Shown here: positions 14,734 to 43,522 of the stretch, one piece after another
Layout of the letters: each line of letters opens with the position of its first letter
Numbering within the stretch: position 1 is the first letter of the stretch
The notes under the pieces: generated by a model
What the model saw: the letters and a program-made list of their open reading frames with translations, nothing else
The model's database searches: none
What the model was told of the DNA's origin: nothing
Source: Candidatus Thorarchaeota archaeon
GTDB lineage: Archaea; Asgardarchaeota; Thorarchaeia; Thorarchaeales; Thorarchaeaceae
Reading direction: 5' to 3'
Assembly (NCBI GenBank): GCA_048882485.1
Contig: JBHLRP010000010.1
Location: forward strand, 8,431 to 72,430
Length of the DNA stretch: 64,000 nucleotides
Position numbers and translations under genes: made by a program

Positions 14734-15912
14734 TCACATCGCCTTTGGTTTATATATTGGAGACATTCCTCGAATTCGATTGAGTATCTCTGGAGTTGCT
14801 TCGAGGACCCTTTCAATGTCATCATCAGTGTTGAATCTTCCAGGTGTAAGCTGTAGTGATCCATGTGCTTCTTCGTGAATAAGCCCAGTTGCAATAAGAG
14901 TTGTTGATGGGGCAAGAGTCTTGGAGGTACAGGCAGAGCCCGTCGACACAGCGATTCCTTTGTCCTTGAATGATAGGAGTAACGACTCGCCTTCCACGCC
15001 ATCAAACCTGAAATGGGCATTGCTTGCGAGTCTTTCTGTTGGATGGCCATTGAGATGGCTATCTGGAATCTCGCTCAGTATTGTACTAATCAAGCGGTCA
15101 CGATATCCCTGAAGCCGGCTGACTTCGTCTGGCATTTCTGTCTTCATTATTTCGATGGCATGTTTCATCCCAACGATTCCTGCAACATCCTCAGTCCCTG
15201 ACCTCAATCCTCTTTCCTGACCGCCTCCAATCAAAATGGGATTGACTCTATATCTCTTCTTCATGAACAGTACCCCTACTCCTCTGGGGCCATAGAAGTC
15301 ATTCGATGACAGGGACATGAGGTGAATTCCATCTCTCTTGACATCAATTGGCACCAATCCTTGAGCTGCCACCGCGTCTGTGTGAAATGCAATTCCCTTA
15401 TCCTCAGCCAATTTTCCAATTTCTCGGATTGGCTGAATCGTACCGATCTCATTGCTGGCATATTGAATTGAGATGAGTAATGTATCATCTCTTATTCTGC
15501 GTTCTAGCTTCTTCAATGGCACCCGTCCATACATATCCACAGGCACCTGTGAAACCTCGAAGCCTTGTCGCTCCAGGTATTTTCCTATATTTCTAACAGA
15601 GATATGTTCAACCTCTGAAATGATTATGTGGTTCCCTTTTCTCTTGTTCTTCATGGCGTAGCCTATTAGGGCCATGTTGTTTGACTCAGTTGCACCAGAT
15701 GTGAAGATGATCTCATCATAGTCGGCATTGATGTAATCTGCAATAACCCGTCTACTCTCTTCAAGAGCCTCCGTGGCTACGTCCCCCACATGGTGAAGAG
15801 CTGAAGCATTACCAAAGCGCTCATGGAAATAAGGTAGCATGCCCTCAATAACACGCGGATCTACAGGCTTTGAGCTTTGGTAGTCCAGATACACCTCTCT
15901 TACGTCGCCCAC
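14734..15912 (-). CDS. iscS: IscS/NifS-like protein with Asp replacing the PLP-binding Lys
   Basis: FTSGATESNN, FHTDAV, SSNDFYGPRG (canonically SxHKxYGPKG), GGGQERGLRSGT, STGSAC. Confidence 0.88.
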   Translation of the reverse strand: MGDVREVYLDYQSSKPVDPRVIEGMLPYFHERFGNASALHHVGDVATEALEESRRVIADYINADYDEIIFTSGATESNNMALIGYAMKNKRKGNHIIISEVEHISVRNIGKYLERQGFEVSQVPVDMYGRVPLKKLERRIRDDTLLISIQYASNEIGTIQPIREIGKLAEDKGIAFHTDAVAAQGLVPIDVKRDGIHLMSLSSNDFYGPRGVGVLFMKKRYRVNPILIGGGQERGLRSGTEDVAGIVGMKHAIEIMKTEMPDEVSRLQGYRDRLISTILSEIPDSHLNGHPTERLASNAHFRFDGVEGESLLLSFKDKGIAVSTGSACTSKTLAPSTTLIATGLIHEEAHGSLQLTPGRFNTDDDIERVLEATPEILNRIRGMSPIYKPKAM

Positions 15913-22475: not shown

Positions 22476-23924
22476 CTACTGTGACTCATCATCCTTAATT
22501 GAATCCAGCATTCCCTGGAATGCTCGTGCTAGCTCTCCTATTTCGTCATCCTTTGAAGTATATGTCGTGTCCACTTGCAGGTCAAGGGTATCGAGCGGTT
22601 CTTGTTTTATCATAGCTGCGACATTCTTTGTTGCGAGGTCCATCATGTATTGCAGAGGTCCCGTGATTTGGTTTGATATCACAACAGCAACAGCTGCGGC
22701 TATCATGATTCCTGCTACTGTTATCGCTAGGATGAATAATGTTGCTTGAGTGTTTGCAGCCTCGATACGTGCCTCTAATTCAGGAATTGCACTCAATACT
22801 TCATCAACCGGTACGACTATGACGCAAATCCAATTTGCCTTGCCAACTGGAGTGTAAACTAGGATGAAGTCTTCACCATCACGAGTGTATCTTAGGAATC
22901 CGGTTGCGCCTGAACGTATCTGGTCCACATCTTGGGATGATAATGCTGGACTTCCATCAGTATTACGTTCAACGAATGTAAGCGCAGGCAATCCTGTTTC
23001 GTATGCTTCGTCTGGAACCTCTGGGTGTGCAACTACCAGTCCAAGACTGCTCTCTACAAGAGCGGCATAACCTGATGTTAGAACAGTAACATCAAGAACT
23101 TCCTGATTGATGTCTGCAATTGTAATGTCTCCAGCAACAATTCCAATGAGGGTGCCATTCTCGAAGTAAATCGCCCGACCAATGGTCACAAGGAGAACTC
23201 CTTCAAGCGGGTCGAAATATGGTTCTACAAAGACCATATCACCATCACCGTCCTCAACCTCTGTGTAGAAGAAATCTGTCGTTGGATACCATGGATCAAT
23301 TAGTCGATTCTCGATGGGCAGCAAGCTTCCTGGATAGTTGATGAACATGTTAGTATCTTTGAAAACAACGTATAGCCACCTGAAGTCAAGCTGTTCATGG
23401 ACTGATTGAAACATTTGGTCGATGTTTGAAATCCTTGCGAGCCTCTCATCCTCATACAGTTGATAATCAGCAACTGTTGAAGGCGGGACGTACCAGCTGC
23501 TAAATGTCCATGACACATTAAGTTCATAGTTGGGATCATAGGCTGTATCAGCTGGATACTCTCCTGGAGATCCATATTCGAAATAGTAGTCGTAGTAAGT
23601 TCTTCGAGGTATGTACGTTGATTCATCACTCAGAAGCCCCTCTGCTTCCTCAGCTAGTGCTGCAATCATAGACTCAGCATTCGTTAGTTTCTGATTGATC
23701 ACCAGTGCTGTCTTCTCACCGGTAAGATCCATGTTGGTCTGAATCTGTGATTCGAGAGCATTTGTACTCTCTGTAGTGGTGAAGTCTCCAATCAAATTCA
23801 CAAAGAAATATGAGATTCCTCCAGTGACTCCTAGAGAAATGATCGAAATTGTGACGAAGGTCAGTATGACATTCCTGCGGAAACTACCTTTCTTCTTGGT
23901 CCTTGCCATCTTTGACAACATCAT
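22476..23924 (-). CDS. Membrane dCache + HAMP sensor with no cytoplasmic output domain
   Basis: TM, Cache (EPYFDP, GIVAGDITI, GYAALV...AHP), TM, HAMP (DDEIGELARAFQGM), then stop. Confidence 0.8.
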   Translation of the reverse strand: MMLSKMARTKKKGSFRRNVILTFVTISIISLGVTGGISYFFVNLIGDFTTTESTNALESQIQTNMDLTGEKTALVINQKLTNAESMIAALAEEAEGLLSDESTYIPRRTYYDYYFEYGSPGEYPADTAYDPNYELNVSWTFSSWYVPPSTVADYQLYEDERLARISNIDQMFQSVHEQLDFRWLYVVFKDTNMFINYPGSLLPIENRLIDPWYPTTDFFYTEVEDGDGDMVFVEPYFDPLEGVLLVTIGRAIYFENGTLIGIVAGDITIADINQEVLDVTVLTSGYAALVESSLGLVVAHPEVPDEAYETGLPALTFVERNTDGSPALSSQDVDQIRSGATGFLRYTRDGEDFILVYTPVGKANWICVIVVPVDEVLSAIPELEARIEAANTQATLFILAITVAGIMIAAAVAVVISNQITGPLQYMMDLATKNVAAMIKQEPLDTLDLQVDTTYTSKDDEIGELARAFQGMLDSIKDDESQ

Positions 23925-29422: not shown

Positions 29423-30307
29423 CTACGGTTTCCAGAAATGCAGTAGGTACTCAAATGTTGTCGAGAGAGTGATGTAGTTGCTTGGCCATCCGAAAATCCC
29501 AGCCTTATTCACAATGTTCCTTCGATCCCAGATGATTGTATTCCTGAGTTCAAACCCTACATCTTGTAGCGCGTCGATGACATAGACATGCGCAGGTACT
29601 CTTTGACTCTTCCACCAATAATCAGTGATATTGATTACACAATGTCCTCTATAACGCATTTTGGGGAGAATTCCTTCGAAGATGGTCCCAATTGTTTCTG
29701 CGTATTTCCTCACATCCATAGTTCCGAGGTCTCTAGGATCATCAGAATATTGCTGTACCTCGAGATAATGTTCGTCTTTTCTCAGGTCTCCCCGCATGCT
29801 CTTGTTTCGTCTCTTTCTATTTAGCAAGTTCGCATAAGGAGGAGATGTGATGCACAGAGATACTGTTTCATCATTCAGATAGTCCTTTACATTATGCGCT
29901 TCGACACAAATTGCTAGCTGCGTTCCATTGTTCTTCTCCTGAGGCTTCACCCGTTCGTTAGAAATATCAACATATTCCTGCTTCAAATCAAAACCAACTG
30001 CATTTCTATTGGTGTCCTTTGCCGCCACAAGTGTGGTACCACTCCCCACAAATGGATCAATGACCAGTTCTCCTTTGTGCGTAAAGAGTTCAATGCATTT
30101 CTTGGGAAGTGCGATTGGGAAGACTGCGGGGTGGATTTTCTTATCCCTGATGTCGCGTTTCTCGTAGAAAAACTCCCAGACAGCAATCTGATGCTGCATC
30201 CACTCCTTTGCAGTCAAGCAATTGATATGATTTGGTGGACAATCGCAAGTTCTGGTGTAGTTGATATCTAGCGGTCCTGCAAGCTCTTCTCCAGACAATC
30301 GAATCAC
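29423..30307 (-). CDS. N4-cytosine/N6-adenine DNA methyltransferase (orphan)
   Basis: HPAVFP, DPFVGSGTT, ITSPPY. Confidence 0.85.
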   Translation of the reverse strand: MIRLSGEELAGPLDINYTRTCDCPPNHINCLTAKEWMQHQIAVWEFFYEKRDIRDKKIHPAVFPIALPKKCIELFTHKGELVIDPFVGSGTTLVAAKDTNRNAVGFDLKQEYVDISNERVKPQEKNNGTQLAICVEAHNVKDYLNDETVSLCITSPPYANLLNRKRRNKSMRGDLRKDEHYLEVQQYSDDPRDLGTMDVRKYAETIGTIFEGILPKMRYRGHCVINITDYWWKSQRVPAHVYVIDALQDVGFELRNTIIWDRRNIVNKAGIFGWPSNYITLSTTFEYLLHFWKP

Positions 30308-42215: not shown

Positions 42216-42608
42216 GTGAGTGCCAAATTCGCCAAAGAGGTGAATGTATTCTCTAGTGCCAACCAGGTATTCCAAGAGACTCACGAACCTTTCGTCAAGC
42301 CTTCTTTTGAGAGCCTCGCTGCATCATTCTTGTCTCTAGCAGATATGAGAATGAGTGAGACTCAGAAATACGTTCTGAGAGTGAGTGCCCAGCTGTTAAG
42401 GCATAATGATCTGACAGTGACGGCATTAGCAGACCAGGTATCACGCAGGGCTTCAGTTGCCTATAGCACTGTGAAATGGAATCTGCGATCCTTAATGGAC
42501 TTGGGTTTGCTATCTGGCGGTGATATGGAAAACAGAGGACAGCTGGCAAAGCTTACAGCAACTGCTGTAATGTTGGCTAACTTCCTCGAAGAACAGTATT
42601 ACAAGTGA
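42216..42608 (+). CDS. Winged-helix DNA-binding protein
   Basis: TVTALADQVS....VAYSTVKWNLRSLMDLGLL followed by wing LT. Confidence 0.7.
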   Translation: MSAKFAKEVNVFSSANQVFQETHEPFVKPSFESLAASFLSLADMRMSETQKYVLRVSAQLLRHNDLTVTALADQVSRRASVAYSTVKWNLRSLMDLGLLSGGDMENRGQLAKLTATAVMLANFLEEQYYK

Positions 42609-42655
42609 GAGGCGGGATCACCTTCGAGAGTAATCCCCTCTCATTCTCTTTTTTT
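42605..42655 (+). terminator. Hairpin plus U-tract terminator between convergent genes
   Basis: GTGAGAGG-CGGGATCAC...GTAATCCC-CTCTCAT followed by TCTCTTTTTTT. Confidence 0.6.
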
Positions 42656-42676
42656 CCACTGCTTGCCGCGGGTTGC

Positions 42677-42728
42677 AACCCGGCCTCCATCGACACCGCA
42701 TTACTTTAGGTGTAGATATCATCGGATT
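42677..42728 (-). promoter_or_regulatory. Eukaryote-type SECIS element overlapping the stop codon
   Basis: AAUCCG-A-UGAU-AUCUACACC-UAAAGUAAUGC-GGUGUCGAU-GGAG-GC-CGGGUU: helix I, AUGA/GA core, about 10-bp helix II, apical AAA. Confidence 0.75.
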
Positions 42729-43522
42729 TTCTTGTTGAAGAAGCCCCATGCCATATTGATGAGGCTTCGAACCTCGTCAAGACCGTGCGCGGAGGCGAGG
42801 ACAAGATCAACCGAACTGCTATCACCCGGCTTCAAATCACCTAGGTTGCACTGCAGACCGGTGGCAATGTCCTTCGGTCCCGCTTCGGGATTGTTCTTTA
42901 GGTCGCGCTTTTCTGATTCTACCTTGAGCTTCAGTGGAGATGATATCTCCCAGCCATCAGGACTCGGCTGTGAGGAAATGGCTACAGAAACCTGGCTTTC
43001 ATCATAGGCAATGACGATTCCGTTCTTTTCGTCATAGGTGCCCATGTCGTCTTTGTAGCTCATTGGACCTCCTATATCGAAGTCGAAGATGCTGTAGACC
43101 TTGAGGTCTTGGACCATGCTGGAACTGACGTTCGTTGTCGTATGCCGGAGTAGCAAGACAGGTTTGTTGTAGCTCCACAAATCAAGTGTGAAGTTGACCA
43201 CAGGTTCCTCGAATTCTTGAGGTGCGTGGCTCATCACTAGTCTTAGGCTACCTTTCTTCTGCTTTCGCTCCACGACAGCGATGGTGTCAGCTTCCGTCGA
43301 CTCGACGACAGCTACAGTCCCATCTGCGACATAAGACGCCCAGATACCGCCTTTATAGTCAGCAGGATTCTTGAGCAGTAGTCGTTCCTTTCCGGTGGGA
43401 TCTATCAGTCCGAGGCGTCTGATGTAGAAACCGATGCGACCTACGCCTCATGACGCACATTCAACAGCATAACTGATGTCGAGCCTTGGACGTCGGTTAC
43501 CGGTTTCAAAGATCTCGGACAT
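42719..43522 (-). CDS. Candidate selenoprotein, 267 aa, N-terminal CxxU motif (CASU) on a predicted beta-sandwich body
   Basis: ATG 43522; MSEIFETGNRRPRLDISYAVECAS-TGA(43450..43448)-GVGRIGFYIRRLG... continues in frame into track ORF 42719..43273; SECIS at 3' end. Confidence 0.8.

Follow-up and report, generated by a model that had tools for sequence, protein, structure and literature searches.

Archaeal selenoproteomes are tiny. For the Asgard archaea, the main-text lists of a 2024 census (Huang 2024, PMC11227280) and of a 2026 review hold seven selenoprotein families, all of them found by homology to known selenoproteins. Among the SECIS elements described from this group, that of VhuU.1 in Lokiarchaeota has an AUGA core that overlaps a UGA stop codon (Mariotti 2016, PMC4989117), and overlap of this kind is frequent in Lokiarchaeia (Huang 2024, PMC11227280). 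In the literature, Asgard archaea are not known to have an SBP2.

We analyzed a stretch of 64,000 nucleotides from a Candidatus Thorarchaeota archaeon (contig JBHLRP010000010.1), referred to below as the window. A preliminary description of its sequence had reported a SECIS of eukaryotic rather than methanogen type, whose core UGA doubles as the stop codon of the gene, so that one mRNA would carry one UGA to recode and another at which to terminate. Both UGAs are present: the terminal TGA (42721..42719) ends the open reading frame, and an in-frame UGA occurs upstream, at codon 25. The overlap of stop and core is real, but it is not new: Mariotti 2016 and Huang 2024 both describe it in Lokiarchaeia. 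What the element flags here is an apparent eighth Asgard family, a single-copy protein with a CxxU motif. The features of the locus are listed below in the direction of transcription.

42719..43522, minus strand: putative selenoprotein gene, 267 codons plus stop, with its ATG at 43522 and its terminal TGA at 42721..42719, translated with TGA read as U
43448..43450, minus strand: putative Sec codon UGA, codon 25, in the motif V-E-C-A-S-U-G; TGA in 40 of 41 full-length loci
42724..42726, minus strand: 5' strand of the K-turn C-stem, U-C-C, within the last two codons (Ile, Arg); pairing conserved
42719..42723, minus strand: K-turn bulge G-A-U (L1 to L3) followed by G-A (1b, 2b); T, G and A invariant in 44/44
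42709..42717, minus strand: 5' arm of helix II, AUCUACACC; compensatory changes at 8/8 pairs
42698..42708, minus strand: apical loop of 11 nt, UAAAGUAAUGC; AA invariant in 44 orthologous 3' ends
42689..42697, minus strand: 3' arm of helix II, GGUGUCGAU; covaries with the 5' arm
42683..42688, minus strand: 3' core G-G-A-G (N, 2n, 1n, -1n) and 3' strand of the C-stem (G, G, C); the A and the next G invariant
42665..42684, minus strand: second hairpin, adjoining the core on its 3' side, GCCGGG-UUGCAA-CCCGCGGC; GGG/CCC stem conserved
42649..42655, minus strand: A-run, ~65 nt past the stop, at consensus columns ~100-110 of the orthologues

Between the ATG and the terminal stop, the CxxU gene contains a single internal in-frame TGA, at codon 25, and the terminal TGA is the first in-frame stop beyond it. 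The SECIS lies downstream of UGA-25, at a distance of 729 nt. A scan of GTDB species genomes recovered 43 orthologous loci, 41 of them full-length, with protein identities ranging from 45 to 97%, and the 3' ends were aligned over the interval –24 to +85 relative to the stop codon (44 sequences). Both flanks of UGA-25 are conserved. The 24 codons on its 5' side, in particular, are strongly conserved in the 41 full-length loci (M-S-E-I-L-E-T-G-N-R-x-P-R-L-D...). In a class-wide search, every full-length match except one had one TGA inside it, and the TGA of codon 25 was present in 60+ genomes. The gene ends on TGA in 41/41 full-length loci, and the base before this TGA is A or G in 44/44 3' ends. 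By comparison, TGA accounts for 38% of stops in the genome, and TGA preceded by A or G for about 23%.

One full-length locus encodes Cys at codon 25 (L013; 3272-3380 of JAEOUG010000096, Thorarchaeota FT1_004), and its motif reads E-C-S-S-C-G. This locus keeps the UGA stop of the K-turn, helix II, the A-rich loop, the GAG and the second hairpin, and hence the SECIS is not strictly tied to the Sec codon. The element of L013 looks like a 'fossil' SECIS, and a recent change from Sec to Cys would explain its retention. Among the 43 Sec-form 3' ends examined, there was no case of UGA-25 without the element.

Of 87 Thorarchaeia genomes, 69 (about 80%), representing 15 of 17 genera, carry the CxxU family, each in a single copy. 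Its clustered homologues (n = 28) are all annotated as hypothetical, and those that are named come mostly from Thorarchaeota MAGs. All 28 were called short, with annotated starts at varying points past the TGA; gene callers, in other words, always truncate this protein at its UGA. We obtained no match to the protein in Pfam or NCBIfam, and no significant sequence match in the PDB. An assignment as aIF2-gamma was dismissed, the sequence matches behind it being weak (E = 0.16). The AF2 model of the full-length protein (pLDDT 90.8, pTM 0.90) is an all-beta supersandwich, and Foldseek finds it to resemble the N-terminal domains of GH94 cellobiose phosphorylases, GH116 and GH15, as well as GalM (E ~2e-9, TM ~0.6). 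The predicted fold is thus that of a sugar-enzyme-like (GH94/GalM-like) beta-supersandwich.

Outside the Thorarchaeia, we found relatives only of the C-terminal ~170-235 residues, and these contain no internal stop codons. Four such distant non-Sec homologues from other Asgard families (L063-L066, in genomes G104, G190, G292 and G122) lack the N-terminal CxxU module. Their stop codons are TAA or TGA, and no SECIS-like element was found at any of the four. Three of them (L064-L066, ~292-295 aa) carry a C-terminal Cys, in ...T-E-E-C or ...K-Y-E-C, which may represent an alternative placement of a redox residue. The CxxU protein shows no sequence homology to any of the seven Asgard selenoprotein families named in the main-text lists. 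Judged on those lists, it is probably an unreported selenoprotein family, the eighth for Asgard archaea.

On the minus strand, 42745..42637 reads ...AAAAUCCG-A-UGA, where the TGA is 42721..42719. The AUGA of the SECIS corresponds to 42722..42719 and the GGAG to 42688..42685. Helix II spans 9-10 bp in the window copy, with a single U.C mismatch. For the core, helix II with its mismatch and the loop with its unpaired AAA, the letters and positions given in the preliminary description are correct. Comparison of the 44 orthologous 3' ends, a check which that description had also proposed, provides strong evidence for the structure. RNAalifold recovers helix II, with compensatory changes at 8/8 pairs, and 93.7% of its alignment cells are paired. 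When helix II and the C-stem of the K-turn are considered together, 90.7% of cells are paired, compared to 30-52% after sliding of the 3' partners, and none of 500 shuffles reached the observed covariation score. The terminal TGA, the AA of the loop and the 3' AG are invariant. A third loop A is present in at least 90% of the 3' ends, the loop consensus being GUAAAGC...GCA, and the 3' GA occurs in 41/44, the other three having UA.

Below helix II, the sequence satisfies the canonical description of a kink-turn: a Watson-Crick -1b/-1n pair, a 3-nt bulge and tandem G.A/A.G pairs, the latter predicted between G42720/A42719 and A42686/G42687. In this kink-turn, positions L3, 1b and 2b are taken by the U, G and A of the gene's stop codon. 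The pair C42724-G42685 is C-G in 44/44 sequences and always lies 3 nt 5' of the GA. The second pair of the C-stem covaries (CG15, GC11, UA5, AU2, UG1), and the third, U-A, is found in most clades. The last sense codon is C-N-R in all orthologues (Arg CGA or CGG, Gln CAA or CAG, Pro CCA), a constraint at the RNA level that holds whatever the amino acid.

These features agree with those of Asgard eSECIS-like type I elements. In that type, the stem is flanked by [A/G]UGA directly 5' and by GA (rarely AA) directly 3'; the upper stem has 7-15 bp with no more than two mismatches; and the apical loop has 8-20 nt, with unpaired adenines at its start. The window element shows each of these features. 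The element also sits at the 3' end of a gene whose in-frame UGA aligns with a Cys (that of L013), in a genome that encodes Sec machinery. In the 44 3' ends, we found no conserved GAA/A bulge of the methanogen (eaSECIS) type, and the conserved helix is continuous. The assignment to a eukaryote-like, Asgard-type SECIS therefore stands, given the AUGA/GA core and the lack of a GAA_A bulge.

No Rfam family matched by gathering score or at E <= 10, so the covariance-model check suggested at the outset came back negative, and the eukaryotic SECIS model, SECIS_1, had no match to the window element. The suggested RNAfold check did no better: the window copy folds no more stably than shuffled sequence (z = –0.17), and its unconstrained MFE structure lacks helix II. 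A single-sequence fold is uninformative here because the non-canonical pairs of the K-turn are not modelled. Tools for archaeal, bacterial and eukaryotic SECIS elements likewise failed on the SECIS of Lokiarchaeota (Mariotti 2016, PMC4989117). We then built a covariance model (R1) from the CxxU-family elements and ran it on the whole genome. It returned only the window element and one element on contig C65, and missed the SECIS of selD and FrhA, which makes R1 too family-specific for counting SECIS elements. A hand-written loose motif scan recovered the FrhA-type SECIS, along with about 25 probable false matches in the genome.

The lower part of the element differs from the one initially drawn. 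The helix I first proposed, AAUCCG/CGGGUU, is not conserved (51% of cells paired, with no real covariation) and was rejected; its GGG is part of the conserved second hairpin. Judging from the alignment, the conserved lower part consists of a canonical K-turn C-stem plus the second hairpin. The flanks of this hairpin covary, with 75% of cells paired, and it is seen in 38/44 single-sequence MFE folds. In most orthologues, the last codons (F-x-K-K-I, AAGAAGAU) additionally form a helix of 10-17 bp with UCUUCUU located past the second hairpin. This coding-sequence helix (KKI codons/UCUUCU) appears in 32/44 folds, with 67-72% of cells paired. Together with the second hairpin and helix II, it would form a three-helix junction in most orthologues, and the presence of a third helix near the C-stem is reminiscent of a k-junction. 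The UCUUCU 3' arm is absent in the window's own clade (the window and L001-L006). In that clade, some folds only show GCUUCUUC paired with GAGAGG, located after the A-run, a contact that is weaker and spans a longer range.

The A-run (42649-42655), which reads as a T-run on the plus strand, keeps its position in most of the orthologous loci. It lies ~40 nt past the stop of a convergent 130-aa gene, 42216..42608(+), which has a weak winged-helix (Penicillinase_R) match, and may be the T-run terminator of that gene.

The assembly encodes tRNA-SeC, SepSecS and a SelD with an in-frame TGA, and a PSTK fragment lies at a contig end. Elements of the same design follow other TGA-bearing genes or ORFs in this genome, namely selD, FrhA-like genes (contigs C46 and C8) and a small ORF on C65. 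The selD SECIS is at ~30040-30160 (-) of contig C6 (locus L045; further loci L076-L095). In 21/21 loci from 21 Thorarchaeia genomes, Sec-type selD ends on an [A/G]UGA that starts a covarying helix, and next in the element come an A-rich loop, the sequence GAGGA and another hairpin, CUGCUGC-GCRAG-GCAGCC (21/21 loci). Nine other genomes have a long (~750 aa) fused SelD without an in-frame stop.

Four near-identical SECIS elements follow the motif GGCGGCGG-AUGA, at 22480, 21320 and 18729 (-) on C46 and at 77573 (+) on C8. The one at C46 22480 (-) ends an FrhA/VhuU-like C-terminus, D-C-U-L-S-C-G-A-H ... T-G-G-G-stop (...TGGG-UGA). For the other three (C46 21320 and 18729, C8 77573), the upstream in-frame ORF has only 39-61 codons, and the gene models are doubtful. 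Hairpins analogous to the second hairpin follow both the selD and the FrhA-like SECIS elements. Stop/core overlap is thus the rule in Thorarchaeial selD and holds too for the FrhA-like gene.

Overlap is not obligatory, as the element on C65 makes clear. Here, a 69-codon ORF (L052; C65:15415-15730, +) has an in-frame TGA at codon 57, in the motif C-T-T-G-U-G-P-P, and ends on a TAG at 15622. The encoded protein would have an N-terminal hydrophobic helix and a Thr-rich linker. The SECIS lies 62 nt beyond this TAG, with its AUGA at 15685 and an R1 score of 49 bits, and has its own second hairpin, GGGG-AGCA-CCCC. The L052 ORF is a candidate for a second unannotated selenoprotein.

Covariation, invariance, linkage to UGA-25, the presence of Sec machinery and the recurrence of the same architecture at selD and the FrhA-like genes together indicate an Asgard-type SECIS. 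On this comparative evidence, the window element is very probably functional, directing Sec insertion at UGA-25 (43450..43448) of a 267-aa CxxU selenoprotein. Against this count the lack of an Rfam match, the unremarkable fold of the window copy and the retention of the element in L013, as well as, for elements of this type, the inactivity of a lokiarchaeal SECIS in M. maripaludis (PMC11881835). Could the element instead be a K-turn hairpin with some other role, such as regulation through L7Ae binding, stabilisation of the mRNA from its 3' end or termination, with an incidental link to Sec? It is established that K-turns are common L7Ae targets in archaea (cited in PMC11881835), the Cys-form locus L013 still has the element, and Rfam SECIS models give no match. 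However, our scan found this shape only downstream of TGA-bearing genes or ORFs (the CxxU gene, selD, the FrhA-like genes and the CTTGU ORF), the non-Sec homologues lack it, and its features match those of published Asgard SECIS elements. We regard such another role as very improbable. As for the idea that the AUGA...AAA...GA match arose by chance, the upstream TGA being a real stop or a sequencing error, the z of –0.17 for the single-sequence fold and the roughly 25 unrelated genome matches of the loose motif scan would be in keeping with it. Against these stand the covariation and invariance across 44 loci, the conservation of the 24 codons 5' of the TGA and the occurrence of that TGA in 60+ genomes, which refute this explanation and leave it virtually no probability.

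If the element is a SECIS for UGA-25, then in its folded state it would be expected to recruit the archaeal Sec elongation factor with Sec-tRNASec, either directly or via a K-turn-binding protein, and the factor would deliver Sec-tRNASec to ribosomes at UGA-25, 729 nt upstream. The last ~7 codons, together with the stop, lie within the lower helix and K-turn, which a ribosome close to the end would therefore have to unfold; this unwinding would occur as it reaches the last ~10 codons. With the K-turn unfolded by the arriving ribosome, the terminal UGA would be met without a SECIS and hence read as a stop, in agreement with the argument that a minimal-distance rule keeps nearby UGAs from recoding (Mariotti 2016, PMC4989117). 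That termination might in turn couple or limit Sec insertion, as originally suggested, is plausible. On this view the overlap itself would be functional: terminating ribosomes would melt the lower helix and K-turn and thereby reset or dislodge the SECIS complex, which would pace or limit insertion at UGA-25, and the terminal UGA would never be recoded. The minimal-distance rule, by which nearby UGAs are spared, is consistent with this proposal, as are the invariance of the stop/core arrangement over 44 orthologues (45-97% protein identity), its recurrence in selD (21/21) and the FrhA-like gene, and the restriction of the last codon to C-N-R at the RNA level. On the other hand, the C65 element, 62 nt past its TAG, is of the same type, so overlap is not required for function; VhuD genes of Lokiarchaeota have diverse stop codons, UGA included (Mariotti 2016, PMC4989117); and economy, in the form of short archaeal 3' UTRs combined with an obligatory core UGA, explains the arrangement equally well. 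We therefore consider a functional overlap unlikely. Further from likelihood is the idea that the stop within the K-turn has been selected as a translation-coupled gate, such that each terminating ribosome displaces the Sec-delivery complex, the termination rate sets SECIS availability for the next ribosome at UGA-25, and the terminal UGA is unrecodable. Were this gate real, then along with the branch hairpin and the lower helix from coding sequence it would define a Thorarchaeial three-helix SECIS, a form nearer to the eukaryotic SECIS, with its two helices, than published lokiSECIS elements are.

How, then, does the CxxU-family SECIS compare to known elements? With the lokiSECIS, or Asgard type I element (PMC4989117; PMC11227280), it shares the AUGA at a stem of ~9 bp, the A-rich start of a loop of ~11 nt and the GA that follows, as well as the location at the extreme 3' end of the gene, where the AUGA overlaps a UGA stop. 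Its loop, GUAAA, matches the G[U/G]AAA published for the SECIS loops of Thorarchaeia frhA. In contrast to the lokiSECIS, the overlap is invariant across the family rather than occasional, and the gene family served is absent from the published main-text lists. Moreover, the CxxU-family element has a K-turn with a 3-nt bulge and a C-stem that covaries, besides a second hairpin, and most orthologues add a coding-sequence helix of 10-17 bp. We found no description of the second hairpin or of the three-helix layout in main texts on Asgard SECIS elements.

With the methanogen SECIS (eaSECIS; GAA_A, GC clamps), the common ground is a 3'-end site serving a distant UGA; the CxxU-family element differs in having no asymmetric GAA/A loop, its covarying helix being continuous. 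The likeness to the canonical kink-turn (Kt-7 or box C/D, bound by L7Ae) extends, at the level of predicted pairs, to a C-stem closed by C-G, a 3-nt bulge ending in U and tandem G.A/A.G pairs, with the non-canonical helix after them. With the eukaryotic SECIS (Rfam SECIS_1; bound by SBP2), the CxxU-family element shares the AUGA_GA quartet, the unpaired As of the loop, predicted action from the 3' end over a distance and the logic of helix I, core and helix II. It differs from the eukaryotic form in its shorter upper helix, its overlap with the coding sequence and the branch hairpin in its 3' strand. The 44-sequence alignment thus provides a covariation-backed picture of the Thorarchaeial SECIS, with a canonical K-turn, one additional hairpin and a lower helix in which coding sequence takes part, and this layout bears on the origin of the helix I - core - helix II design of eukaryotes.
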